A stretch of 64,000 nucleotides of DNA from positions 1 to 64,000 of IMG/VR virus record IMGVR_UViG_3300036797_000015; one strand, 5' to 3'. Position 1 is the stretch's first letter. Each line of letters opens with the position of its first letter. Below the pieces are notes generated by a model that made no database searches, was not told the origin of the DNA, and saw nothing but the letters and a program-made list of their open reading frames with translations. Of this stretch, positions 1-13,509 are shown in pieces. The position numbers and the translations under genes were made by a program. The DNA comes from a virus (taxonomy: Duplodnaviria; Caudoviricetes).

Positions 1-208
1 TGTGCCAAACAGTTACATCACCCTGGCGGGGGTAGTGCTTGACTACCACCATTGGTAGCTGGGTCTTACCCGATTGCTCTACCAGGGCCTTAGCCTCTGG
101 GTCGGCGTCGATGTCGATGTCTGTATAGGCTACACCACGTTCATCGAGCTTCTGCTTGGTATACTTACATTGAACGCAGTCTTCCCTGCCGTAAACCGTA
201 ACGCCCAC
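1..208 (-). CDS. nrdH: NrdH-like glutaredoxin (runs off the window edge)
   Basis: Manual translation from GTG at 208 with AGGAG SD: MGVTVYGREDCVQCKYTKQKLDERGVAYTDIDIDADPEAK...QLPMVVV...WH; CVQC redox motif typical of NrdH. Confidence 0.9.
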   Translation of the reverse strand, partial: MGVTVYGREDCVQCKYTKQKLDERGVAYTDIDIDADPEAKALVEQSGKTQLPMVVVKHYPRQGDVTVWH

Positions 209-311
209 GATTCTCCTAGTCAAGCTAAGTTACCGTCAACCTACCCGTAGCCTACTCCATTAGGCCTGGTAGGAAGGCCGATTCCGCACCCCTAGAAGCG
301 ATTCTCTGGTG

Positions 312-451
312 AGTTCTCCGGATGGCCGGTATACTGTACCCAGGGACCAGGGCTTTTGGACAGCAGCCCGGCCCAAGGCCCTGACCAGGCGTTATCAGTC
401 CGGTCTAGACTTCTGCCCTGGTCTGGCGTACTTTTGACCTTGGGGAGAACT
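312..451. promoter_or_regulatory. Divergent promoter pair
   Basis: + strand TAGACT-17nt-TACTTT (406-434); - strand TACAGT -10 box (338-333); both carry GCCCTGGTC in the spacer (345-353 inverted, 415-423), with a variant GCCCTGACC at 378-386. Confidence 0.55.
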
Positions 452-820
452 ATGCGTAATCCCTGGTAGAACGACCGTAGACCGGAATGTCGGGTTAGAT
501 GCTTAGGCGAGACCCACTAGACCGGCCAATGCGTGACGTTAAGATCGGCAAAGTCGAGAGGAACCACCCGGCTATGATCGGGAGTAGGCCGCGACCTAGC
601 GGAAAGCCCTGGGCGGGCAACAGATCTGGCGCTAACGGAGTTGCTTGAGAACTAAACAGAGAAATCCTTAGTAGCGGAGGTGCGAACCTCCGTGGTTCCT
701 ACACATCCGCTACATGGTTGTTGTTGGGGCAACGTAAGTTGCGTGCGAGTCTGGGGCTTCGGTCCCAGGCTGGTGCGGGGCGAAGCGTTATTTGCCCTGT
801 TCCCAACACCCTGAGGAGAA
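441..820 (+). ncRNA. Long structured 5' leader / putative ncRNA
   Basis: No credible + strand ORF. Nested helices GGAACCAC(559-566)/GTGGTTCC(692-699), CGGAGGT-GCGA-ACCTCCG, GCAAC-GTAA-GTTGC, GTCTGGGGC-TTCG-GTCCCAGGC; GNRA and UUCG tetraloops. Confidence 0.6.
640..659 (+). promoter_or_regulatory. rrn boxA-like antitermination element
   Basis: GTTGCTTGAGAACTAAACAG closely resembles the actinobacterial rRNA-leader boxA region (GTTGTTTGAGAACTCAA) as recalled. Confidence 0.5.
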
Positions 821-823
821 ACA

Positions 824-1132
824 GTGATCGAGAATCTGGAGAATAGCCTAGCACGATTAAACTTCCCCAAATTGCCTGATAGGGAAGATCGTGTTATCCG
901 GCTAGCCTCTGTACTCTGCGACGTTACGAACGGCCGTGTTGGCCGTAAGTATGACGCAGATGTCCGCAAATCCGCGGTGCTTATCTGGCGTAGTTTAACC
1001 AGTGATGAAAGCGTGTTCGTTAGGCTGCGGCCGCGAACGCTTACTAAGCACGCGAATCTGCTGCTCAGCCAAACGGTTAATCCCGATGCGGCGTATCTCG
1101 CTGGCCTTATAAAAACAGCAATCTCGGAGTAG
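824..1132 (+). CDS. Hypothetical early protein
   Basis: GTG start with GAGGAG SD; TAG stop abuts repeat element. Confidence 0.75.
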   Translation: MIENLENSLARLNFPKLPDREDRVIRLASVLCDVTNGRVGRKYDADVRKSAVLIWRSLTSDESVFVRLRPRTLTKHANLLLSQTVNPDAAYLAGLIKTAISE

Positions 1133-1210
1133 AAGTGCGGCGGTAGCCGGTCTAGTACCGGCTACCTGCGGACTAGCTACCCTGCTTGTCTACCCAACAA
1201 CCAAGAGGAA
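1130..1210 (+). repeat. Class I intergenic element, copy 1
   Basis: TAGAAGTGCGGCG-[GTAGCCGG/CCGGCTAC stem]-CTGCGGACTA-small hairpin-CCCAACAACCAAGAGG. Confidence 0.9.
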
Positions 1211-1218
1211 ACACGAAA

Positions 1219-1470
1219 ATGGCTACACTGGAAGTAAAGCTGAGCGTGGTTAACTGCGGCGAACGCCGGGCCGATAGGCTCTGCGTTGGCGACCTTGTCT
1301 GTCTTGAAGGCACGGTCGCTACCGTCGCGGATGCTACGTTCTGCGGAGCCAACCCTGGCATGATGTATGTGGACTTTTTGGCCACCGCCGAGGATGGCCA
1401 GGAGTGCCGCAAAACGCACTTCGTGCGTCGGGATGAGGCATTCCGAGTCGTGAAGGTGGTCGCAGAATGA
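1219..1470 (+). CDS. Hypothetical early protein
   Basis: ATG after the repeat-borne SD; ATGA overlap with next gene. Confidence 0.75.
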   Translation: MATLEVKLSVVNCGERRADRLCVGDLVCLEGTVATVADATFCGANPGMMYVDFLATAEDGQECRKTHFVRRDEAFRVVKVVAE

Positions 1471-1724
1471 CCATCTACTACCAAGCACGATTCCTGGCTG
1501 AAGGCGGCCCAGCGTTCGATGGGTGTCCAAAGGCCAATCTGCCTGAAGGCACCGAAGTGGATGAAAGCGAAGCGGTGATTATCCGCTACCAGAAAGGTAT
1601 GTGGCAAGTTATCTACGTCAACGCGAACGTCGTGGTGGCAGAGGGCCAGGATATGTACCTGGCAACGAGCTATATGCTTGACTGGGCGCACGCGCTCCAG
1701 GATGAACTGGAGGCAAGCAGATAG
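1467..1724 (+). CDS. Hypothetical early protein
   Basis: Coupled start; TAG stop begins repeat copy 2. Confidence 0.75.
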   Translation: MTIYYQARFLAEGGPAFDGCPKANLPEGTEVDESEAVIIRYQKGMWQVIYVNANVVVAEGQDMYLATSYMLDWAHALQDELEASR

Positions 1725-1812
1725 AAGTGCGGCGGGTACTGGGACTTAGGTCCCAGTGCTCTGCGGACTAACTATCTGGTTAGTACCAAGCAGTACCCAA
1801 CAACCAAGAGGG
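1722..1812 (+). repeat. Class I intergenic element, copy 2
   Basis: TAGAAGTGCGGCG-[GGTACTGGGAC/GTCCCAGTGCT]-CTGCGGACTA-CTAAC/GTTAG hairpin-CCCAACAACCAAGAGG. Confidence 0.9.
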
Positions 1813-1818
1813 AAAGAA

Positions 1819-2496
1819 ATGACTATGACAACAGCACAAAAGCCCGCCAGCGGACGTTCGCTGAAATTCTTCCATGACCTGATCTGGGGCAAGGATGAGC
1901 AAAGCGTGTCTGACTTCCGTGCGAATCTGCCGACAGAGTGGCGGTCGTTGTTTGATCGCTGTATCAGCAGTTTCGCTAACTGCGACCATGAAGGTCTTGG
2001 CCCAGAAGCCATGAACGATTGGATGGCGAGTGAAGAATGGCCGCTGCTGGAGCAATCCGACGCGAGTAAGTTCATTGAGGGCTTGAAGGCTTTGCCCTGG
2101 AAGCAAGGAACTAACCCCGCCAAGGTGCGCGAACCTGTCACCGAAGATGGCATGTACAAGGTTGGCGACACGATCTACAAAGTCCAATGGAACCGGCAGA
2201 AGACTAACCTCTATGCCAAGGTCCTGCGGGTGTCGCGTAACTCGTATGAGGGGAAGCACGAGGTTTGGTTCGATTACGAGTCTGGTGCGATGAAGAAAAT
2301 CTCCGCTAGCGATAAGATGACCTACGAGCAGGCACGAGAGTTTGGTGCTATGTACGGTACGTGCGTTAACTGTGGCAGGTTACTCACCAACGAGCTTTCG
2401 ATAGCTCTTGGTATCGGCCCAGTCTGCGGTGACCGGATGTTCGGTGGCGACTTCAAGTTCATGATCGATGACGCCAAATTGAAGTTAGCCAAATGA
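1819..2496 (+). CDS. DUF6011-like zinc-finger protein
   Basis: C-terminal YGTCVNCGRLLTNELSIALGIGPVCG matches the CxxCGRxLT...SxxxGIGPxC pattern. Confidence 0.75.
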   Translation: MTMTTAQKPASGRSLKFFHDLIWGKDEQSVSDFRANLPTEWRSLFDRCISSFANCDHEGLGPEAMNDWMASEEWPLLEQSDASKFIEGLKALPWKQGTNPAKVREPVTEDGMYKVGDTIYKVQWNRQKTNLYAKVLRVSRNSYEGKHEVWFDYESGAMKKISASDKMTYEQAREFGAMYGTCVNCGRLLTNELSIALGIGPVCGDRMFGGDFKFMIDDAKLKLAK

Positions 2497-2654
2497 AGGT
2501 GAAGGTGACCGCTAGAAAGTATGGCGGAGATGATGCTGCTTCGTGGGCGATATTCCGTAGCGACGCAAGCAGGCCGGTAGTTACCGGCTTGTACCGGAGT
2601 GAGGTAGCCTACTACAAGAAGCAGATTCAAGAGATGGTCGACCAGGAAGGATAG
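2493..2654 (+). CDS. Small hypothetical protein (53 aa, not in ORF track)
   Basis: ATGA-coupled: MKVKVTARKYGGDDAASWAIFRSD...QEG; TAG begins repeat copy 3. Confidence 0.7.
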   Translation: MKVKVTARKYGGDDAASWAIFRSDASRPVVTGLYRSEVAYYKKQIQEMVDQEG

Positions 2655-2740
2655 AGGTGCGGCGATACCTGGTGCTACGGTACCAGGTATCTGCGGACTA
2701 GCTATCCGGCTAGGACAAAGAAAACCCAACAACCAAGAGG
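2652..2740 (+). repeat. Class I intergenic element, copy 3
   Basis: TAGAGGTGCGGCG-[ATACCTGGTGC/GTACCAGGTAT]-CTGCGGACTA-CTAGC/GCTAG hairpin-CCCAACAACCAAGAGG. Confidence 0.9.
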
Positions 2741-2747
2741 AATGAAA

Positions 2748-3935
2748 GTGACAAAACCCCAAGATAGTATCATGAGCAAAATCATGAAGCTGCTGGAGAG
2801 GGCCAATCACCCGAGTACGCCTGAGGCTGAAGCAAAAGCATGTGAAGAAAAAGCAGACGCTTTGATGGCGCAGCACCAGATAGATCGAATGGATCTGAAG
2901 CCAGAAGAGAAGGCCAAGATTATCCAGGACGCCTGGAGCATTCACTTTGGTGTTTCGGGTAAGGCCCACGAATTTGGTAGCGCCATCGAGTCGCTCATGC
3001 GTGCTGTCCTGTCGCATTGTAAGATCAAGATGGACCCTAGGTACAGCTACGGCACTAACGAGAATGGGGACAAGGACTATGGTGTCCGAGTCTTCAAACT
3101 CGTTGGCTTCCCTGAAGATATTGCCTATGCTGAGCGCATCTGGTTCCGAGTCTTCAAAGAGTTTGTGTTTAACGTCAACCCAGGTTGGCGCAAGGACGCC
3201 TCTATAGAGGACAACGCGTATGACTTGGTCAAAGCCAGTATCGACTGGCAGACGATGGTCCTGATGGCGAATAATGCCGGAGATGACCGCATACCCGTGT
3301 CGGAGTTGGAAGTGTTACAGCCGTATGATAAACGGCAGATACCAGTTAAGGGTAATCGTCCGCTGATCAAGGGCATCAATATGTTGCGTGATGCTTACCG
3401 TGCGGAATGCGAACGTCGCGGTGAAGCCTATGAGTACAATAAAGGCGACAAGACCCGTGCGTCGTACAGAAGCAGTTTCGCTATCTCGTTTGCCGGCACG
3501 ATTAAGCGGCGACTGGATGAAATGCGCCAGAAAGCAGAAGAGACTGTCTCTGATCGGGACAAGTACGCGTTGGCACTAGTCGATACAGAAGAGCAGGTGG
3601 AGCGTGAGTTCTACCGGCTGTTCCCCGAGTTTGACCCTGAAATCCGCAAGCGCCAAAGGGATGCTGCGGCCGCTGAGGCTGTGGCTGACTTCCTGGCAAT
3701 GTCGGAAGATGAGCAAGCTTACGTGATCGACTATGTGTCCAAGGAGGAAGCAGAGAATGAGAAACGTTGGCAACGGGCAGCCGGTCGGGCTAGGCGCAAT
3801 TACGGGACGATACGTGGTCGAGACTATGGCGACGTTCAGGACCGGGCCTGGAAGGCTGGCCACCAAGCTGCGTCCTCAGTTAATCTGAGGGATGATGCGG
3901 AGGTTAAGCGTGAGACCCGTAAGGGTATCCGATGA
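2748..3935 (+). CDS. DUF2786-domain protein
   Basis: N-terminal KIMKLLERANHPSTPEAEAKACEEKADALMAQHQID; GTG 2748 is better spaced from the SD than ATG 2742. Confidence 0.75.
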   Translation: MTKPQDSIMSKIMKLLERANHPSTPEAEAKACEEKADALMAQHQIDRMDLKPEEKAKIIQDAWSIHFGVSGKAHEFGSAIESLMRAVLSHCKIKMDPRYSYGTNENGDKDYGVRVFKLVGFPEDIAYAERIWFRVFKEFVFNVNPGWRKDASIEDNAYDLVKASIDWQTMVLMANNAGDDRIPVSELEVLQPYDKRQIPVKGNRPLIKGINMLRDAYRAECERRGEAYEYNKGDKTRASYRSSFAISFAGTIKRRLDEMRQKAEETVSDRDKYALALVDTEEQVEREFYRLFPEFDPEIRKRQRDAAAAEAVADFLAMSEDEQAYVIDYVSKEEAENEKRWQRAAGRARRNYGTIRGRDYGDVQDRAWKAGHQAASSVNLRDDAEVKRETRKGIR

Positions 3936-4042
3936 CCGCATATTCCGTCCCCAGGTTCTGGATGGTCGCGTGGGTCCACGCGATGCTCGAATGTGTGAGA
4001 TTGCTGATGCTTCTGGCAATCGCGCTGGAGATAATGTACTAA
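3932..4042 (+). CDS. Small hydrophobic peptide (36 aa)
   Basis: ATGA overlap; MTAYSVPRFWMVAWVHAMLECVRLLMLLAIALEIMY. Confidence 0.5.
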   Translation: MTAYSVPRFWMVAWVHAMLECVRLLMLLAIALEIMY

Positions 4043-4136
4043 GGAGGTGATCATGCGAAGTGCCCGCCAGATATGCAGCCCTGGCGGGTATTTCGGGTGC
4101 CGTACCTCGACACTCGACCCAACAACCAAGAAGGAA
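4041..4136 (+). repeat. Class II intergenic element, copy 1
   Basis: AAGGAGGTGA-ATGCGAAGTGC-[CCGCCAG/CTGGCGG]-GTATTT, TCGGGTG/CACTCGA hairpin, CCCAACAACCAAGAAGG. Confidence 0.85.
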
Positions 4137-4148
4137 ACTAGAAGAACC

Positions 4149-4682
4149 ATGAGCAAGCAAGAAGATGTGCGTAAGTTCACCAATCTGGACAATGACACCT
4201 CAATCGAAACCTGGAGTATAGGCGAGATTGCTGAAGGTGTTATGGCCAGAGTCAAAGAAACGACTGGTGAAGATGTCAATAGAGCGTATGGACAAAGTCT
4301 GTGGGGCCTGGAACGCAAACTCGCTGAGTTTGTCAAGAACCTTGACCTGGAGACACCCAAACCCTCTATGGTGTTCCGTGGCGCTAGCTACTGGTCGCCT
4401 GACACGATCGACGCTTGGGTTCAGCTGCTGAATGAAGACAAAGCCGCCAAATTGGCCAAGAACTGGTCCAAGGAGGAATTGGTCCAAAAGGCAGCATCGT
4501 TTATGGCTAGGGAGTCTGCCTACAGCGATACCAAGATTGCCAATCGTGACGCCTACAATCGTGCCGAAGCCGTTATGGAGTTTATCCAGACCCTGGATGA
4601 ATTTGGCATTGTTGACGAGACGATGGAAGATGCGATGCGGACTATCGTGAACAGGTTCAAGAGTAAGTCGGGCCTGCGATGA
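4149..4682 (+). CDS. Hypothetical early protein (alternative in-frame start at 4053)
   Basis: ATG after repeat SD; an upstream strong SD+ATG reads through the repeat in frame. Confidence 0.8.
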   Translation: MSKQEDVRKFTNLDNDTSIETWSIGEIAEGVMARVKETTGEDVNRAYGQSLWGLERKLAEFVKNLDLETPKPSMVFRGASYWSPDTIDAWVQLLNEDKAAKLAKNWSKEELVQKAASFMARESAYSDTKIANRDAYNRAEAVMEFIQTLDEFGIVDETMEDAMRTIVNRFKSKSGLR

Positions 4683-4780
4683 AGCCTAACGGAGCATTCC
4701 GCGGTGCGTTCTTTGGGGCTTTGGTTGGTATCTTTATATTCTGGGTACCTGCCATAGTCCTGATGCTTACCCACCACTAG
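4679..4780 (+). CDS. Small membrane peptide (33 aa)
   Basis: ATGA overlap; MKPNGAFRGAFFGALVGIFIFWVPAIVLMLTHH, single TM segment. Confidence 0.6.
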   Translation: MKPNGAFRGAFFGALVGIFIFWVPAIVLMLTHH

Positions 4781-4866
4781 GGGTGAATATGCTAGGTGCC
4801 CTGGGGCTTAACGTCCCAGGGTATCTAGGGTATCAAACCCGATACCTACCCAACAACCAAGAGGAA
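4778..4866 (+). repeat. Class II intergenic element, copy 2
   Basis: AGGGGTG-ATGCTAGGTGC-[CCTGGGGC/GTCCCAGG]-GTATCT, GGTATC/GATACC hairpin, CCCAACAACCAAGAGG. Confidence 0.9.
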
Positions 4867-4872
4867 AAGAAA

Positions 4873-5172
4873 ATGTCTGGAATCTACGCAAAGATCAAGA
4901 GGCACAAGGGCAATAAGGTCTGGTACAGTCTTGAGTTCAAGATCATAGCTATCGGCGAGGAATCGCGGTGGCCGTGCTTGGATATGGCCAGATTCAACCT
5001 GCCGACTGAAGCCCGTGCTTGCGCTGAAGAGCGCGGCTGGCACGTGGTGGAGACCTGGCGGGAAGCCTATGATCACGCCCAGATTGGTCCGTGGGATGGT
5101 GTGTACCGTGCCTATGAGCCACCAAGGGTGGTCGGTCCTGACTATGTAGAGGAACGGGCCAATGTCCGCTGA
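4873..5172 (+). CDS. Hypothetical early protein (alternative in-frame start at 4789)
   Basis: ATG after repeat SD. Confidence 0.75.
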   Translation: MSGIYAKIKRHKGNKVWYSLEFKIIAIGEESRWPCLDMARFNLPTEARACAEERGWHVVETWREAYDHAQIGPWDGVYRAYEPPRVVGPDYVEERANVR

Positions 5173-5509
5173 GATCGTGACCGCAGGCTTCTGCCCGCAG
5201 TACTTCAGCCAGTTCCGCGTTTTGAGCAATCAAAATGATACATATTACTCAGTAACGCTAAATGGCACTGGGCCAGCATTCTGTACGTGTAAAGCGTATG
5301 AGTTTGCTAAAATGTATGACAAGACCTGTAAGCATATTAAACGGGTCTGGGAACATGGCTGCTTATATAACCCGCAATGGAAGGATGCGGGGCCAAATGA
5401 TCTGGATAAAGTTGGCGTTGAGATTGTCGCTACCGATACCAGAAACAGCTACCCTAAGAATTGCCCCGGTTGTCATGAGGAGATGATAGCCGTGAAGATA
5501 GCAGTATAG
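5162..5509 (+). CDS. SWIM-type zinc-finger protein
   Basis: CTCKAY...TCKHI (CxC..CxH) plus a C-terminal CPGC. Confidence 0.75.
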   Translation: MSAEIVTAGFCPQYFSQFRVLSNQNDTYYSVTLNGTGPAFCTCKAYEFAKMYDKTCKHIKRVWEHGCLYNPQWKDAGPNDLDKVGVEIVATDTRNSYPKNCPGCHEEMIAVKIAV

Positions 5510-5595
5510 GAGACTATGCCAGGTGCCCTGAAGCCAACCACTTCAGGGTATCTGGGGTATCGTTCCTAGATGCCTACCCAACAACCAAGAAGGAA
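5507..5595 (+). repeat. Class II intergenic element, copy 3
   Basis: AGGAG-ATGCCAGGTGC-[CCTGAAG/CTTCAGG]-GTATCT, GGTATC/GATGCC hairpin, CCCAACAACCAAGAAGG. Confidence 0.9.
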
Positions 5596-5597
5596 TC

Positions 5598-6086
5598 ATG
5601 AGAACAAAAGCAAGGAAAGCATTTCTACACTCAGCGTTCACGACCGCGCTTGAAGGCGGAATTGGCTACTGGTCGGAGTGCGAGGAATATGTTTGGTCTA
5701 AGCCAAAAGCCGGGCCAACCAAAGAGCGCACTGAAGACCTGGATGGCTTTCATGCTTGGATAACAAACAACGAGAGTGACTGGGGTGTCGGTAAGGCGTA
5801 CCAACCAAATACAACGAGCAAGTACGCTGTAGATGGTTGGGTTGAGTTAGAGCCTGACGCCACTTTGGTCATTGACATTGACGTTGTCGAGCGTGGAGTC
5901 AATATGCTGGTTGATGCGGTAGTCGCCGCGACCAAGTCGGAAGACCCAGAAGCGCCATTTAACAACAAGTACCTCCGACAGTTCGTGGAGGCTTGGCTAA
6001 CTGATGGCGACGGTGGGGATTACGACGCTAATGGTGCCGACCTGGCTATCCAGCTGGGGCTGTTCGGTGAGGTCGTGTACGCATGA
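5598..6086 (+). CDS. Hypothetical early protein
   Basis: SD plus ATG; TTALEGGIGYWS segment; coupled to next gene. Confidence 0.8.
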   Translation: MRTKARKAFLHSAFTTALEGGIGYWSECEEYVWSKPKAGPTKERTEDLDGFHAWITNNESDWGVGKAYQPNTTSKYAVDGWVELEPDATLVIDIDVVERGVNMLVDAVVAATKSEDPEAPFNNKYLRQFVEAWLTDGDGGDYDANGADLAIQLGLFGEVVYA

Positions 6087-6334
6087 GAATGTTTATTTTA
6101 GGCCTCATCGGTATAGCCTCGTTCAGCGGTGGAGTGCTTGGTTTCAGCTCAAATGACGAGATGAACCAGCGCGTAGTAATTCCGCCAATGACACCGACCG
6201 TTACGGTTACGGCACCGGTGGTGACAGATACAATGCCGGAGCACGAGGATAACCCGCCAAGCCGGTGGGGGACTAGTCCTACGCCGACTCTGCCTTGTCC
6301 CGTGACACTAAACTGCGGGAAGGAGATGGTGTGA
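6083..6334 (+). CDS. Secreted/membrane protein with Pro/Thr-rich tail
   Basis: N-terminal hydrophobic stretch, PT-rich body. Confidence 0.65.
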   Translation: MRMFILGLIGIASFSGGVLGFSSNDEMNQRVVIPPMTPTVTVTAPVVTDTMPEHEDNPPSRWGTSPTPTLPCPVTLNCGKEMV

Positions 6335-6549
6335 CTAACCCCAACCTGGTGTATGTTGAGTTCCCAGGAGGTAACCGAGCGCCTGGCGGTTACATCGTGC
6401 CTGCTTACTTAACTGGCAGAACCAGCGGTCGTCAGAGCCAAGTAGTGCTGACGGCATCGACAAATGGCCATCGCTATGCATGGCCGCAATGGGTACGGAA
6501 TGGGCAGATACTTACCGACGAGGAAGTTTCTGAATTAGGCCCGGACTAG
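6331..6549 (+). CDS. Hypothetical protein
   Basis: GTGA overlap, AAGGAG SD. Confidence 0.65.
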   Translation: MTNPNLVYVEFPGGNRAPGGYIVPAYLTGRTSGRQSQVVLTASTNGHRYAWPQWVRNGQILTDEEVSELGPD

Positions 6550-6574
6550 CCTAGAACGGAGTAAGATAGAGCGC

Positions 6575-6657
6575 ATGCGAGGTGCCTATAACGTACCCAA
6601 ATACGTTATAGGTATCTCGGGTGATGAATCTGTCACCCGACCAACAACCAAAGAGGA
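6575..6657 (+). repeat. Class II intergenic element, copy 4
   Basis: ATGCGAGGTGC-[CTATAACGTA/TACGTTATAG]-GTATCT, TCGGGTGAT/GTCACCCGA hairpin, CCAACAACCAAAGAGG. Confidence 0.9.
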
Positions 6658-6663
6658 AAACAG

Positions 6664-7290
6664 ATGGCAAAGAATGTGAAAAACCCAAGCGGTTACCATT
6701 CAGCTGGCAAAACGCTGCAAGAGAAGGCTGCCAATTTCGGCAGTTTCGTGAAACAGCACGGTTGGACTGGCAGTTTCAAAACTGCTGAAAACGGTGATGT
6801 GAATCTGCTTGCGCAGCGGGGTGACAGTGAGTCCATTGAGATCTGTTGGCTTAAGGGTGGTGGTGGTTCAGTCAGATACACGCTGGCGGGTACCACCGTA
6901 AAGTGCCATAACGTAAGTGCGGCCGCTAAAATTGCCCAAGAGCCACCAGATATCAATAAGGTCCAGAAAGCAGTGCGTAAACGGCATGTTGCTCCTGAGA
7001 ATGGTGAGATCACGCCCGATATACTCGATGGGCTTCAAGGGTCACTTCCGTTCGATCGTGAGTCCACTGACCAAGAGATCAAACTGGCGTTGAAGGATAG
7101 AAACATCGCCTGGATCAATCGGCTCAGCGGTACGGTATACCAAGCTGTAGTGGGGGTGTCCAAGCAGTTTAAGGTCATCCGCGCTGAGGACCCAGTAAGG
7201 GACCAAATCAGTTTCGTGGAGGTAACTCCGCGAGGTATCCTGCCGCAGTTCCGTGCGGTCTATCTCAACAGTATAGTGAGTGTGGGCTGA
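6664..7290 (+). CDS. Hypothetical protein
   Basis: 208-aa ORF after repeat SD, TGATG-coupled to the helicase. Confidence 0.8.
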   Translation: MAKNVKNPSGYHSAGKTLQEKAANFGSFVKQHGWTGSFKTAENGDVNLLAQRGDSESIEICWLKGGGGSVRYTLAGTTVKCHNVSAAAKIAQEPPDINKVQKAVRKRHVAPENGEITPDILDGLQGSLPFDRESTDQEIKLALKDRNIAWINRLSGTVYQAVVGVSKQFKVIRAEDPVRDQISFVEVTPRGILPQFRAVYLNSIVSVG

Positions 7291-9224
7291 TGGCAAAGCG
7301 GTTGTGGTCGATGGGCCTTGGCACGGGTAAGTCTGGTACAGACGTTATCTGGGTGAAACAAAGCAATTATGACCCAGATGCGAATGCCTCTCTGAAAGCG
7401 AATCTGCCTGGCCCTGCTAGGTGGAACGGTGATGAGAAGCGTTTTGAGTTCCCAGTTCACTGGGACGCCTGTACTGGCGCTCGTCGGGTAGCTGACAAGT
7501 TCGATGTACTGCTGCGTATCGCGCCTAGCCTACGAGAGTGGGCTGAGGTTGAGAAAGCAAGGCAGGCAACCATTCCCGATGTTCAGTCGATGGAATTGGT
7601 TGACTTGCCAGCAGTGCGAGAAGGCTACCCTGCGCTTTGGGAGGCTATCACGTCCAGACCGTTCCAGACCGTGGGCGCTGCTTTTGCGGCGCGTAATCGT
7701 TCGTGTCTGATAGCGGACCAACCTGGACTTGGTAAGACTCTCCAGAGTATCGCGGCTGTGATTGAGTCTGGTAGAACCGGACCCATATTGGTAGTGGCCC
7801 CAAAATCCGCTGCCAAACTCACCTGGCCTCAGGAGTTAGCACGTTGGGTACCTGGCGATTTGGTTTATGTGCTTGGTAGCCATCTTAAAGCGGCCGAACG
7901 AGTGCAACTTGCCAAAGACTTCCGTACCGGATCTGGCAATGGGCACGGCCGTAAAGATGGCAAGCGTATTTGGCTTATCACTTCGCCGCACTATGTACGG
8001 ATACGAGCCGAGGTCGATGACTGGGGCAAGTATATGTACGAGAATGGCAAGAAGATCATCAATCCCGTTGGCGAGGCAGTAATGGAACTGTTCGACGTTA
8101 AATGGTCTGCGGTGATCGTTGATGAGTCGCACCAAACGCTAGCTGGTGCTAGGGGCAACAAAAAGAAACAGTCTTCTCAGCGTCTTGGGCTTGGAGCCTT
8201 AGACGTTATCGACGGAGGATTGCGGATTGCGTTGTCTGGAACACCGTTCAGAGGTAAGGAAGAATACCTCTGGGGCCAGCTCAACTGGTTACGCCCTGAT
8301 TTGTATCGTAGCTTCTGGCAGTGGATCAAAGATCACTTTGACTGCTACCAAGACAGGTACGGTATGACAATCGGCAGAATGGTGGACGCTGAGGGTATGT
8401 ATCGTGAAGCCAGCTCTGTGATGATTCGGCGCACGAAGGATGAGGTTGCTAAAGACTTGCCCGCCAAGCAGTACGGTGGGTGGCCTTTGGAAGCCGGCAA
8501 TCCCGAGTCGCCGATAGCTGTGTGGCTTGATATGGAACCGAAACAGGGTAAAGCCTACCGGGACATGGTCAAACACGCAGCCGCAGAGCTGGAGGGTGGT
8601 ACGCTACTGACGAACGGCATCCTGGCGGAGTTAACGCGCCTGAAGCAGTTTGCTGGTAGCTACGGCAAGCTTGAAGGTGATAAGTACGTTCCGATTCTGC
8701 CGTCCAATAAGTTTGACTGGACGGTAGAGTTTCTAGACGAGCGTGGCATCACCGACAAGTACGAGCCTGACGCGCCTAAAGTGGTGATAGCGTCTCAGTT
8801 CGCTCAGCTGATCAATTGCTTCGCTGGTGCCTTAAAGGATATGGGAATTGAAGCCCACGTCTTTACGGGAGCCACGAGCGACAAGGACAGAGAGCGGATA
8901 AAGGACGACTGGCAGAATAACCCTGAGAGTCATGTGAGGGTGCTTCTGCTTACTACAACCGCTGGCGGCGTGTCGCTGACTCTGGATGCTGCGGATGATC
9001 TAATCATTCTCGATGAGACGTGGAATACGTCTGATCAAGAGCAACTGGAGGATAGGCTCCACCGCCTGTCGCGTATGCACCAGGTGACAATCTGGAAAGT
9101 GTTTAGCCGCGATACAATTGAGGAATCAATCGCGGTTGCCAACCTAGGGAAGGAGTATAACATCAAGTCGATCATTGATGGCGAGCGAGGCATTCCGTTC
9201 GCTAAACAGATGGTTGGCGGATGA
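7290..9224 (+). CDS. SNF2-family (SF2) DNA helicase
   Basis: ADQPGLGKT (motif I), VIVDESHQ (DExH), LSGTP, C-terminal GGVSLTL and QLEDRLHR. Confidence 0.92.
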   Translation: MAKRLWSMGLGTGKSGTDVIWVKQSNYDPDANASLKANLPGPARWNGDEKRFEFPVHWDACTGARRVADKFDVLLRIAPSLREWAEVEKARQATIPDVQSMELVDLPAVREGYPALWEAITSRPFQTVGAAFAARNRSCLIADQPGLGKTLQSIAAVIESGRTGPILVVAPKSAAKLTWPQELARWVPGDLVYVLGSHLKAAERVQLAKDFRTGSGNGHGRKDGKRIWLITSPHYVRIRAEVDDWGKYMYENGKKIINPVGEAVMELFDVKWSAVIVDESHQTLAGARGNKKKQSSQRLGLGALDVIDGGLRIALSGTPFRGKEEYLWGQLNWLRPDLYRSFWQWIKDHFDCYQDRYGMTIGRMVDAEGMYREASSVMIRRTKDEVAKDLPAKQYGGWPLEAGNPESPIAVWLDMEPKQGKAYRDMVKHAAAELEGGTLLTNGILAELTRLKQFAGSYGKLEGDKYVPILPSNKFDWTVEFLDERGITDKYEPDAPKVVIASQFAQLINCFAGALKDMGIEAHVFTGATSDKDRERIKDDWQNNPESHVRVLLLTTTAGGVSLTLDAADDLIILDETWNTSDQEQLEDRLHRLSRMHQVTIWKVFSRDTIEESIAVANLGKEYNIKSIIDGERGIPFAKQMVGG

Positions 9225-9637: not shown

Positions 9638-10291
9638 GTGGCCGAAGTGAACCGGAGGTTTGGACCGGACAATCCATCAGAGGCGCAGAAGTCTCTGGCG
9701 AAATATATCCGCGAGCAGAAGGGTTTTGACATCACGGATGCCGCGGTGTCGGCGTCCTTTACCTGGCACGGGGAGTGGCAATCTTCCCCCGAGCGGCACG
9801 CCGAGCTGGAGTTGGTTCGCCAGCAGGCCCGTGAGGATCGGGAGAAGGCACGCGAGGCAAGCAAGGCTGAAGCCGATGAGAAGCGTAAGGCCAAGGAAGC
9901 CGAGCGCGAATCAAAGCGTGCTGAGCGCGAGCAACAGGCCGAGGCAAAGCAGGCCGAGCGCGCCCAGAAGGAACAGGAACGCGAAGCAAAGCGCGTCCAG
10001 CGCGAGCAGGAGCGTGAGCAGAAGGAAGCAGAACGGGCGCAGCGCGCTACCGAGCGTGAAGAGAAGCGCAAGCAACAGGAAGAGGAACGCGCCCAGAAGC
10101 AGCAAGAACGTGAAGCTGCTCGTGCGGCCAAGGAAGCAGAGCGCGAAGCCAAGAAGGCAAGCTCTGGCGCTGACGGTGACGACAGCACTTCCGCTACTCC
10201 TGCTGCGGCCGAGAATGGCCGCGAGTCTCGTCGGCGTATTCGTCGGCGTGACGACGCTGATACGGTTGCTGTCAGCGAATCAAGTTTCTAG
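9638..10291 (+). CDS. Protein with long E/R/K/Q/A charged helix
   Basis: AGGAG SD; ~110 aa of EREAKR/ERAQ-type repeats. Confidence 0.8.
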   Translation: MAEVNRRFGPDNPSEAQKSLAKYIREQKGFDITDAAVSASFTWHGEWQSSPERHAELELVRQQAREDREKAREASKAEADEKRKAKEAERESKRAEREQQAEAKQAERAQKEQEREAKRVQREQEREQKEAERAQRATEREEKRKQQEEERAQKQQEREAARAAKEAEREAKKASSGADGDDSTSATPAAAENGRESRRRIRRRDDADTVAVSESSF

Positions 10292-10475: not shown

Positions 10476-10805
10476 ATGCCAATCCATTTCGATGTAGGCG
10501 GTGTAGCCGTTAAGGCTGATACCGTATCAGAAGGTGCGGAGCTACTACGCGAGTTGCTAGCTCCAGTGAAGCAAAAGGCTAAGTCTAACGGAAGTGCGCC
10601 TACAAACGGCAAGCTTAAGCGCGATGAGGTTCTACCCGCCACGCTGGCGTATATTGGCAACTCTGCTAAGGGCAGGACTACCAAGCAAATAGCGCATTAC
10701 TTCGCTATCAGTTCTGCTACCGCTTCAAGCAGGCTACAGACGTTACGGAGCCAGGGCTTGATTAATGTGCCAGAGAAGCGCGGCGGGTATTGGACGGCAG
10801 CATGA
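10476..10805 (+). CDS. Winged helix-turn-helix DNA-binding protein
   Basis: TTKQIAHYFAISSATASSRLQTLRSQGLI; true start is the ATG inside the spurious 9660 ORF. Confidence 0.75.
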   Translation: MPIHFDVGGVAVKADTVSEGAELLRELLAPVKQKAKSNGSAPTNGKLKRDEVLPATLAYIGNSAKGRTTKQIAHYFAISSATASSRLQTLRSQGLINVPEKRGGYWTAA

Positions 10806-11059
10806 AGTCTATCCAAGTAATACTTAGCTGTATGTATAAAGGTTGTACAACTAAGTCAGATCCTGTTGATGCACACGAGATAGATACTTATGAATACCAT
10901 GATGCGCCAAGCGACGGCATCACATTTTGTCAGCCTAAAGATTGGTGGCACGATACGTTGTATGGCCATATCGTCACGTGTCCAGAGCATAAGCAGGAAT
11001 ACTTAGAACGACGATCTAGCGAACAATGGCGCGACAACCATATCGAATGGAAGTTCTAA
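10802..11059 (+). CDS. Hypothetical protein (Cys/His)
   Basis: ATGA overlap; C..C and CPEH. Confidence 0.7.
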   Translation: MKSIQVILSCMYKGCTTKSDPVDAHEIDTYEYHDAPSDGITFCQPKDWWHDTLYGHIVTCPEHKQEYLERRSSEQWRDNHIEWKF

Positions 11060-11933: not shown

Positions 11934-12641
11934 TTGGCAGACATTGGGAACCAAAACATCCAGGCGACAATGGAGGCTTTGGCTTGCCGCGAGACTGCGG
12001 AGTATATCATCAGCCACGAGCAGCTATATGTGGCGGAACAAGTTGAGGGTGCCTCCGAGATAATTGACTGGTCTCTAGGCAAAGCGCCAAAGAACGGTCT
12101 ATGTCTCGAATTTGGCATAGGGTTTGGCCGAACGCTCAAGCGAATCGCTGCACAACGCTATGTCCACGGGTTTGACAGTTTCAAAGGTCTACCGGAAGCC
12201 TGGCGCTCTGGACTACCTAAAGGCACTTTCAGCAATGCCGGTATGGTCAAAGAACAGATTGTAACTAAACTTCACAACTTACATGACGAGGATGCCAGTC
12301 GTGGTGGAGAGATACATGTTGGTTGGTTCAATGAAACGCTGCCAAAGTGGATTGAATATTACCAGTTACAGCTAGAGCGTGGCATTGACTATATCCATCT
12401 TGACTCAGACCTCTACAGTTCCGCGGTGACCATCCTTGAAGGTGTTAAGGAATACCTCAAGCCGGGTAGCGTCATCCTGTTTGATGAGTACTGGAACTAT
12501 CCCGGGTGGAAGCTAGATGGGCACGGAGAACACGCCGCGCTAATGGACTGGAGTATTCCCGATGTTGCTTGGGAGTACATAGGTTACAATCCTATTGGGC
12601 AAGAAGTAGCAATTAGAATGAAGAGGAATCGTGACAAATAA
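11934..12641 (+). CDS. TylF/MycF-like class I SAM-dependent (sugar O-)methyltransferase
   Basis: LEFGIGFG, GFDSFKGLPEAW, GWFNETLP, IHLDSDLYSS, ILFDEY motifs. Confidence 0.85.
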   Translation: MADIGNQNIQATMEALACRETAEYIISHEQLYVAEQVEGASEIIDWSLGKAPKNGLCLEFGIGFGRTLKRIAAQRYVHGFDSFKGLPEAWRSGLPKGTFSNAGMVKEQIVTKLHNLHDEDASRGGEIHVGWFNETLPKWIEYYQLQLERGIDYIHLDSDLYSSAVTILEGVKEYLKPGSVILFDEYWNYPGWKLDGHGEHAALMDWSIPDVAWEYIGYNPIGQEVAIRMKRNRDK

Positions 12642-13509
12642 CCCTAGAGTGTATATCCCCAGCCGTAGCCGCTGGGAGAATGTCCCTAAGCTAACCAAAG
12701 CCTGGGACGATGAGATGTTCGATGTCGTGTTCTCTGTAGAGCCAGACGAGTTGGAGAAGTATGAAGCCGAGATTGATCGTGCTGGCGCTCGTGAGTTCGC
12801 TTCTTGTATTGCTTTGCCTGACCGCAATCTCGGTGTGGGATTTAGCCGAACATTCTGCTTAGAGCACGCCGCGAGTGATGGGCTGGAAAGCATCATCTGT
12901 TCGGACGACGACATCAAGCCGAATACCGGCCGCAATGGCGAATCTGACGCCGGTATGGATAAGTTGATTGAGATATGTGAAGACCCGATGGTGCTTGGTT
13001 GTACCGCATATTACTCATACCTAGACCTCATGCTCGGCATCAAGGGTAAGGATCGCAAAGACGTTATCATTGCGCCGAACTGTATTGTTAGGCTGTTCGG
13101 CCTGAACGTGAAGGAATCGCTCGACCTTGGCGGGTTTGACGCGAGTCTGAAGTGCGGTGATGACGCTGACTTCTTGATCCGTGGTATCTATGCTGGCTTC
13201 CCGTGGCTTATCCACCTTGGCGCTAAGGCTGTCAGTTTCGCACCCAGGTTCGCGACAGGAGGTGTAGCCGCGCTGGAGGATGCTGTAAGCGTAGGCGAGG
13301 TGAAAGGCGCCAAGGGCGACGCTACCCGCGAAGCCGTCCGCATCATCGCTGAGAAGTTTCCTGATATTGCTACTGCGGTGCGCCCAGACAAGTTAAGCTA
13401 CAAGTGGCGTCAGCTATATGATAACGAGCTACCAGACTGGAAGCATTGGTCTCCGCTACATGGCGGCAATATCAACAACTACTTTGGTGAGGGCTGGGTA
13501 TGTCCGTAG
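12631..13509 (+). CDS. GT-A fold glycosyltransferase
   Basis: VYIPSRSR, GVGFSR, CSDDDI (DxD), GGFDASLKCGDDADF; resembles phage TAGT/GREB1-like DNA glycosyltransferases. Confidence 0.8.
   Translation: MTNNPRVYIPSRSRWENVPKLTKAWDDEMFDVVFSVEPDELEKYEAEIDRAGAREFASCIALPDRNLGVGFSRTFCLEHAASDGLESIICSDDDIKPNTGRNGESDAGMDKLIEICEDPMVLGCTAYYSYLDLMLGIKGKDRKDVIIAPNCIVRLFGLNVKESLDLGGFDASLKCGDDADFLIRGIYAGFPWLIHLGAKAVSFAPRFATGGVAALEDAVSVGEVKGAKGDATREAVRIIAEKFPDIATAVRPDKLSYKWRQLYDNELPDWKHWSPLHGGNINNYFGEGWVCP

Follow-up and report, generated by a model that had tools for sequence, protein, structure and literature searches.

Covarying hairpin repeats between co-directional phage genes as candidate RNase III-type mRNA processing modules

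Introduction

Why should a phage place nearly the same short repeat between several of its genes, keep the flanks of the repeat constant, let its paired stem vary and begin each copy at the stop codon of the preceding gene? This question is raised by the class I repeats in the virus record IMGVR_UViG_3300036797_000015 of IMG/VR, a 73.8-kb record rated complete, the first 64 kb of which form the stretch analysed here (the window). The repeats are located in an array of co-directional genes which we call early from its position and non-structural content, and which is presumably transcribed as a single polycistronic mRNA. The original prediction regarded them either as processing or stabiliser signals analogous to the early RNase III sites of phage T7, or as recombination joints which turn the early genes into exchangeable cassettes.

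Results

Architecture of the class I repeats

Class I comprises three + strand copies in the window (1126–1183, 1718–1778 and 2648–2708), which share identical flanks and the leader CCCAACAACCAAGAGG and differ in their paired stems. The predicted positions 1130, 1722 and 2652 are borne out by exact matches of the 5′ flank TAGARGTGCGGCG, and the 3′ flank CTGCGGACTA matches exactly at 1166, 1761 and 2691. As had also been proposed, the first triplet of each repeat is the TAG stop of the upstream open reading frame (ORF), at 1130–1132, 1722–1724 and 2652–2654, respectively. The three copies and their parts are:

1126–1183, + strand: class I hairpin U1; outer stem GUAG/CUAC holding the TAG of ORF 824–1132, then a 3-bp stem, G·G mismatch, CG:GC, 2×2 loop and 10-bp upper stem
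1193–1221, + strand: leader of U1; CCCAACAACCAAGAGG including the Shine-Dalgarno (SD) sequence, spacer and ATG 1219; predicted unpaired fraction 0.65 versus 0.42 at other starts
1718–1778, + strand: class I hairpin U2; outer stem CAGAUAG/CUAUCUG holding the TAG of ORF 1467–1724, 12-bp upper stem with two G·U pairs; 76.3 bits with the class I covariance model R1 (see below)
1767–1784, + strand: alternative small hairpin of U2; ACUAAC(U)/(G)GUUAGU on the 3′ arm of the U2 outer stem; −5.7 kcal/mol versus a shuffle mean of −2.1
1796–1821, + strand: leader of U2; CCCAACAACCAAGAGG and ATG 1819
2648–2708, + strand: class I hairpin U3; outer stem GGAUAG/CUAUCC holding the TAG of ORF 2493–2654, 12-bp upper stem, UACG loop; R1 score 70.2 bits
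2698–2713, + strand: alternative small hairpin of U3; CUAGCU/GGCUAG on the 3′ arm of the U3 outer stem; −7.3 kcal/mol, with 1% of shuffles as stable
2725–2750, + strand: leader of U3; CCCAACAACCAAGAGG with the likely start GTG 2748

Single-sequence folds of class I yield one long irregular hairpin of about 57–61 nt and about 26–28 stacked layers. Viewed from its base towards the loop, it is composed of an outer stem of 4–8 bp, a 1×2 internal loop (A versus UA or AG), a 3-bp stem, a G·G mismatch, an invariant CG:GC step, a 2×2 loop (GC versus UG) and an upper stem of about 9–14 layers, which is capped by a closing loop of 3–8 nt. The flanks base-pair with each other and with the region of the upstream stop codon. 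The outer stem, formed between the stop-codon region and the bases just past CTGCGGACTA, covaries and makes the class I structure longer than first described. A hairpin of at least 4 pairs at the 3′ arm of this stem was found in 8 of the 10 aligned copies and is stronger than −3 kcal/mol in 5 of them; the second 5-bp hairpin of the original prediction can hence form as an alternative fold but is not a separate element, since the 3′ arm of the outer stem is reused.

Of the 9 class I copies preceded by an ORF, 8 have the stop codon −4 to +5 nt from the base with which the outer stem begins, and a ribosome terminating there would be expected to open the lower helix. For the gene behind U3, GTG 2748 is the likely start because ATG 2742 is placed only 1 nt past the SD; the orthologue in G001, a related complete 71-kb genome whose locus is referred to as L136, also begins with GTG at equal spacing.

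Evidence for selection on RNA

Relatives were retrieved by helicase-based searches, which provided 7 viral and 12 metagenome loci. Ten class I copies from three genomes (window 3, G001 3, L141 group 4) were aligned with MAFFT, and their common structure was calculated by RNAalifold. In this alignment, 93.9% of the cells are paired and compensatory changes on both sides occur at 16 of the 20 pairs, values which were reached by none of 500 shuffles; sliding the partner by 1–3 columns as a control left a pairing of only 31–50%. The four class I copies of L215, held out from model building, reveal 98.6% pairing and 9 compensatory pairs. Across the elements, G·U accounts for 62 of 477 pairs (13%), and the + strand is the better-folding one for 22 of 23 elements, its advantage over the reverse complement averaging 8.8 kcal/mol. 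Correspondingly, the covariance model R1 derived from the class I alignment assigns 65–76 bits to the class I copies on the + strand versus 6–10 bits on the minus strand (U1: 65.6 versus 10.4 bits).

The bias to the + strand and the G·U pairs therefore indicate selection on RNA and not on DNA; together with the covariation, they lend good support to the earlier claim that the G·U pairs reflect selection at this level. On the strand evidence, neither a cruciform nor a symmetric protein-binding site can be the form under selection. Moreover, flanks and leader are identical within a genome and the stems have drifted, which thus argues for selection and not for gene conversion. We consider it highly probable that the class I repeats are selected mRNA structures.

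Two details of the original description had to be revised. The stems do differ and stay paired, G·U pairs included, but the difference is not complete, as a residual consensus GGGUAC...GUGCCC is retained. The partial TAGGGGTGCGG on the minus strand at 294–284, which had been listed alongside the copies, is not an element: R1 run with its filters off detected nothing there, and matches with 3 mismatches number 34 versus 30 expected.

A wider family of hairpins

A second covariance model, R2, was constructed for class II. R1 and R2 recognize three and four copies in the window, respectively, all of them in gaps between co-directional + strand ORFs (1126–6623), and neither model rises above noise elsewhere in the window genome or in the rest of G001. 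Class I shares a 6.5-kb gene array with these four copies of class II and with a founder element, U0. The class II copies are:

4052–4099, + strand: class II hairpin U4; leader 4118–4133; R2 score 46.6 bits
4788–4832, + strand: class II hairpin U5; leader 4849–4864; R2 score 54.9 bits on the + strand versus 17.2 bits on the minus strand
5515–5559, + strand: class II hairpin U6; leader 5577–5592; R2 score 50.5 bits
6574–6623, + strand: class II hairpin U7; leader variant ACCAACAACCAAAGAGG at 6640–6656; R2 score 40.7 bits

Compensatory changes affect 13 of the 16 class II pairs, and the G·G mismatch is common to class I and class II. At the position orthologous to U7, L124 and G001 carry a class I-like core.

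The covariance-model scan that had been suggested identified class I homologues in G001 (n=3), the L141 group (n=4) and, after a pattern scan, L215 (n=4), which brings class I to 14 members, as well as class II in the cultured phages Onyinye (locus L154) and Leopard. R2 matches five gaps in each of these two phages, R1 finds no class I copy in either, and R2 applied to the Cluster D phage PBI1 (Mycobacterium phage PBI1; locus L157) yields noise only. In total, homologues of the window hairpin family are present in at least four uncultured relatives. A third subtype occupies two further gaps of Onyinye and Leopard. In Onyinye (3660–3768 and 4461–4570) it consists of GUUGCYGGUGA, a hairpin and GAUCCRAGAGCG in front of a similar leader, and it escapes both R1 and R2. 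The class found at orthologous gaps differs by genome: class I or III before gene D, I or II before gene E, and II or I before gene B. As a separate observation, a weak class I-like match (27 bits) covering only the core and the upper stem lies within tightly packed genes of G001 (10795–10838); it may represent a decayed element.

Broader searches added little. Scanning IMG/VR with the 15-mer leader gave single chance matches only, and 79 of the 80 listed matches to a composite class I pattern were chance matches lacking an R1 match; the remaining one is a real relative, L215. Rfam 15 contains no relevant match at E ≤ 1 in 1–7400, self-cleaving ribozymes included, and none at the gathering score in 14 related loci.

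The leader and the founder element

The leader CCCAACAACCAAGAGG occurs at 1193, 1796 and 2725 and, with at most 1 mismatch, at 4118, 4849 and 5577. Allowing up to 3 mismatches, 7 matches were counted versus 0.5 expected, a number reached in none of 100 shuffles; the leader core CAACAACCAA is found seven times in the genome, exclusively on the + strand and within 1195–6642. The distance from leader to start is 7–16 nt. The leaders are predicted to be unusually open, with an unpaired fraction of 0.64–0.83 versus 0.42 ± 0.11 at 90 other starts (p = 5e-5).

The related element previously placed at 736–818 was recovered as a diverged relative of the family, U0, whose orthologues in related genomes score with R1 or R2:

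715–826, + strand: founder element U0; anti-leader UGGUUGUUGUUGGGG, GCAAC/GUUGC hairpin, two more hairpins, leader variant CCCAACACCC and GTG 824

The U0 leader is predicted to pair with its own anti-leader (unpaired fraction 0.29). Five genomes (window, G001, L141, Onyinye and L215) carry the anti-leader, near-perfectly conserved, where the array begins, and in G001 it is fused directly to a class I hairpin. Its common form UGGUUGUUGUUGGG(G), complementary to the CCCAACAAC leaders, lies at 715–729 in the window, 8393 in L136, 1795 in L141, 3093 in L154 and 2174 in L215. When the non-coding region of about 500 nt before U0 was aligned among the relatives in search of an early promoter, only the anti-leader turned out to be conserved. 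The non-coding stretch 224–720 also contains CCTGGT/ACCAGG five times (265, 346, 384, 417 and 462) versus about 0.3 expected from the genome-wide frequency; similar repeats are present in G001, and they could be operators or origin repeats.

Genome setting and distribution

The window, from a soil relative of mycobacteriophages, encodes the gene set of a tailed phage of siphovirus type, including a 1777-aa tape-measure-like ORF, a DnaE-type polymerase, a primase-helicase and an SNF2 helicase. A blastn search of positions 1–6000 against cultured phages gave 0 matches, and relatives were reached via proteins only. The polymerase shares 62% identity with those of Cluster D mycobacteriophages, and the helicase 66–67% with those of the Mycobacterium phages Leopard, Onyinye and Aikoy (genus Onyinyevirus; host M. 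smegmatis). In the annotation of Onyinye, a matching array of co-directional genes comes after the lysis genes, from which it is separated by a leftward glutaredoxin gene and a gap of some 550 nt; the record of the window is simply cut at this point. Among the relatives, the order of the core genes of the array is kept and the small genes between the elements vary.

In more distant relatives the corresponding gaps contain clear promoter-like repeats, so that the hairpin modules are a peculiarity of the Onyinye-like clade. In L127, which has a lower GC content, three such copies (326–382, 4004–4060 and 9904–9960) stand in place of the hairpin modules; they are sigma-70-like, consisting of an A/T-rich block, TTTACT, a 17-nt spacer and TAGACT, TAGAAT or TATAAT, and the genes use another fixed SD motif, GAGAGGAACCC. 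The equivalent gaps of PBI1 (about 5680, 8416 and 8724) contain GTAGCGCGAATCGGG followed by TAGAGT, TAAGGT or TGGGGT, probably a repeated early promoter.

Exchange of gene cassettes

Two uncultured loci, L139 and L141, are 98–99% identical save for one replaced segment (L139 326–1301 versus L141 6666–7134), which contains a class I element and two small genes in L141, and a small gene, a class II element and a 162-aa-type gene in L139. At the left breakpoint, homology breaks off at the T with which the upstream stop codon begins; in L141, the class I element has this T as its first base. L139 continues with an ordinary SD and a different gene, and has no element at the joint. The right breakpoint of this one event examined is situated a few codons inside the next conserved gene and not at an element. 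A left end at an element, a right end inside a gene start and a joint in L139 devoid of an element therefore do not correspond to a repeat-to-repeat exchange, and the data fit the element as the 5′ part of the downstream cassette better than as a recombination joint. Of the exchange proposed originally, the differing gene content between elements and one breakpoint at the first base of an element were thus found in the relatives, but the other end lies off any element, which lends recombination joints little support. The contigs of one DNA run from the probable source sample contained no joints or joined variants.

A further difference concerns G001, in which an extra small gene (12329–12712) lies between the last element and the conserved gene preceding the helicase. 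It is a candidate HNH-type endonuclease by its Cys/His pattern and resembles an insertion of a mobile gene directly behind the leader.

Discussion

A possible processing mechanism

The data suggest that the class I repeat acts as a cis-acting module of the early polycistronic mRNA and not as a DNA signal. In the reading that we favour, with roughly even chances of being correct, it combines a processing and stabiliser site for a host RNase III-type enzyme with an unstructured leader, and travels with the downstream cassette. The following scenario is conceivable. The hairpin would most likely be the substrate of the host double-strand-specific endoribonuclease RNase III and would be cut at or beside the invariant CG:GC step framed by the G·G mismatch and the 2×2 loop. 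Upon cleavage, the upstream message would end in a protective hairpin, and the freed 3′ arm of the outer stem might refold as a small 5′ hairpin on the downstream message. The CA-rich leader with its SD, kept single-stranded, would offer every cassette one standard landing site for ribosomes, and the whole module would belong to, and move with, the genes downstream. Cleavage, enzyme, cut position and stabilising effect are all features that we infer from structure and conservation; the RNase III step, taken separately, may be right or wrong with about equal probability.

Several findings speak for RNase III. The CG:GC island is framed by unpaired positions in 14 of 14 class I copies. In E. coli, from which the in vivo rule used for the comparison was taken, about 90% of the RNase III targets have base pairs at both positions between the staggered cuts, with G-C favoured (PMC6212723); an invariant island of two G-C pairs with a helix defect on either side would agree with this rule, provided that the cuts fall where predicted. 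Furthermore, the interchangeability of the classes at orthologous gaps is better suited to a shape-reading enzyme than to one sequence-specific binder. The enzyme would be supplied by the host, as a search for a phage-encoded RNase III (PF14622) found none, with the control actinobacterium Corynebacterium glutamicum being positive.

The proposal has to be weighed against a number of unfavourable points. Genomes with a protein identity of only 50–65% share one unchanged core, GCGGCG ... CUGCGG; RNase III alone may not demand such an invariant core, which could rather point to a sequence-specific binder. The distance from core to loop varies from 12 to 16 layers. The RNase III rules applied are those of E. 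coli and T7 and not mycobacterial, and mRNA decay in mycobacteria is dominated by RNase E and RNase J. The host of the uncultured phage is presumed solely via relatives infecting Mycobacterium smegmatis. Finally, none of the records of RNA sequencing runs contained the window sequence, and no RNA ends were seen.

Alternative explanations

The invariant core leads to the most serious alternative, which we regard as possible although distinctly less probable. The hairpin might be the site of a sequence-specific RNA-binding factor, either a phage early protein or a host protein, or serve another nuclease such as RNase E or RNase J, whose cut in the single-stranded, CA-rich leader would be bounded by the hairpins as barriers; in either case translation or decay would be tuned for each cassette. 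Mycobacterial RNase E preferentially cuts 5′ of C in single-stranded regions, and it is a C-rich unpaired leader that adjoins the stable hairpins of the window. The core nucleotides are constant in four genomes, and the G·G mismatch is preserved in both classes. However, a single sequence-specific binder would not tolerate three cores that replace each other at orthologous positions, and an RNA-binding or nuclease domain was found in none of ten early proteins searched.

Somewhat less probable still is a passive structural insulator which is never cut. Its hairpin would lock the flanking sequence so that leader and SD stay open for any gene, would block 3′ exonucleases and would bring the stop near the next start, thereby favouring re-initiation. 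The unusually unpaired leaders, the narrow placement of the stop codon at the first base of the outer stem and the movement of the module with the downstream genes are all in line with this function. A mere insulator, however, needs neither invariant internal loops nor a conserved G·G mismatch, and helix length and internal-loop layout match a nuclease substrate.

With more reserve, we consider that hairpins, uniform CCCAACAACC leaders and the anti-leader UGGUUGUUGUUGGGG may constitute one phage-encoded post-transcriptional control system for plug-in cassettes. The hairpins would then be read by a dedicated factor or cleave themselves, without RNase III, and the released anti-leader might pair with all leaders in trans and set the timing or level of early translation.

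An assignment of the repeats as DNA-level recombination joints of the PeSL or attC kind, which shuffle the early-gene cassettes, is improbable. It could draw on the variable gene content between elements, on the replacement starting exactly at a class I element in two nearly identical genomes and on the fused anti-leader and class I hairpin of G001. Yet strand asymmetry and G·U pairs speak against a cruciform or duplex signal, the other end of that replacement is off-element with no element at the joint of the partner genome, and the stems are not homogenised within a genome although the flanks are, as expected from selection and not from gene conversion. Neither a recombinase in the array nor joined variants in the contigs of the source run were seen.

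A promoter or terminator unit giving each cassette its own transcript is suggested by the promoter-like repeats at equivalent gaps of more distant relatives (TTTACT, 17-nt spacer and TAGAAT behind an A/T-rich block in the L127 clade; GTAGCGCGAATCGGG and TAGAGT in PBI1) but is most unlikely, because a consensus scan of 1–7400 detected no sigma-70-type promoter at any element, no hairpin is followed by a U-tract, the only −10-like string (TAGCTA or TAACTA) has no T at its end and is not conserved in G001 or L141, and the spacing of the two flanks ranges between 22 and 30 nt. Behind the hairpins, CUGCGGACUA comes first and CCCAACAACC next, unlike at an intrinsic (Rho-independent) terminator; the terminator-like sites of the scan coincide with no element. 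Two special promoter types were also considered and rejected: N4-type hairpin promoters, as the window belongs to a siphovirus with a tape-measure gene and a DnaE-type polymerase and without a virion RNA polymerase, and the selection acts on one strand; and cruciform-dependent promoters, as the hairpin is selected on one strand only.

Implications

The covariance models and the 14 class I members define a new structured RNA family which is absent from Rfam, and its sister classes in cultured M. smegmatis phages make the predicted function accessible to bench experiments. If the elements are RNase III sites, they would provide an unusually clear case of T7-style mRNA punctuation in actinobacteriophages and a panel of naturally occurring substrates for the RNase III of mycobacteria, an enzyme of which little is known. 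In addition, the combination of hairpin and open leader might serve as a ready-made insulator for multi-gene expression in mycobacteria.

Comparison with known systems

The PeSL elements of T4-type phages are composite terminator/promoter DNA motifs which recombine with each other (PMC2839356, PMC4122927). Like them, the window modules are short repeats framing small variable early genes, and insertions, deletions or replacements between close relatives touch them. In contrast to PeSL, the modules contain no promoter or terminator consensus and carry a strand-specific RNA signal, and the sole mapped replacement is not repeat-to-repeat. Membership in the PeSL group, as originally considered, is not upheld, as the repeat has neither a conserved sigma-70-type promoter nor a U-tract terminator.

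A second point of reference is provided by the Cluster K phages, in which the SAS, a 13-bp GGGATAGGAGCCC, lies 3–8 bp before the start codon, and the ESAS is made up of conserved 17-bp inverted repeats. Variants of these repeats fail to maintain pairing of an RNA, and a DNA-binding protein was favoured by the authors (PMC3203893). SAS and window leader are both fixed SD-containing motifs just before the start codons of non-structural genes; SAS/ESAS and the window module share a single orientation, the confinement to one genome arm and an inverted repeat which often precedes the motif. The upstream stop is contained in the conserved sequence of the window module and sometimes in that of the SAS. 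However, the leader CCCAACAACCAAGAGG is analogous to GGGATAGGAGCCC in position and unrelated in sequence, and the arms of class I, unlike those of the ESAS, vary and covary with compensatory changes (16 of 20 pairs) and G·U pairs. The comparison suggests a second look at the unexplained SAS/ESAS repeats of Cluster K as possible RNA modules.

The T7 early RNase III sites (R0.3, R0.5, R1, R1.1 and R1.3), folded with the same tool, are built on a plan like that of class I; their cut positions were used as reportedly described by Dunn and Studier in 1983. The differences are substantial. There is no sequence similarity to T7, and class I has two internal defects (the G·G mismatch and the 2×2 loop) around the invariant CG:GC as well as an extra outer stem. 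It is also distinguished by a fixed CA-rich leader after each element, three interchangeable hairpin classes, an actinobacterial host and a cleavage which is so far predicted only. On the other hand, both systems place several copies between co-directional early genes, each of about 50–60 nt and divided into lower stem, internal loop and upper stem (9–13 bp in the common plan), and both combine conserved flanks with a variable paired middle and G·U pairs. In both, the upstream stop can sit in the lower stem, and no U-tract follows. The analogy to the T7 RNase III sites drawn in the original prediction thus holds at the level of layout.

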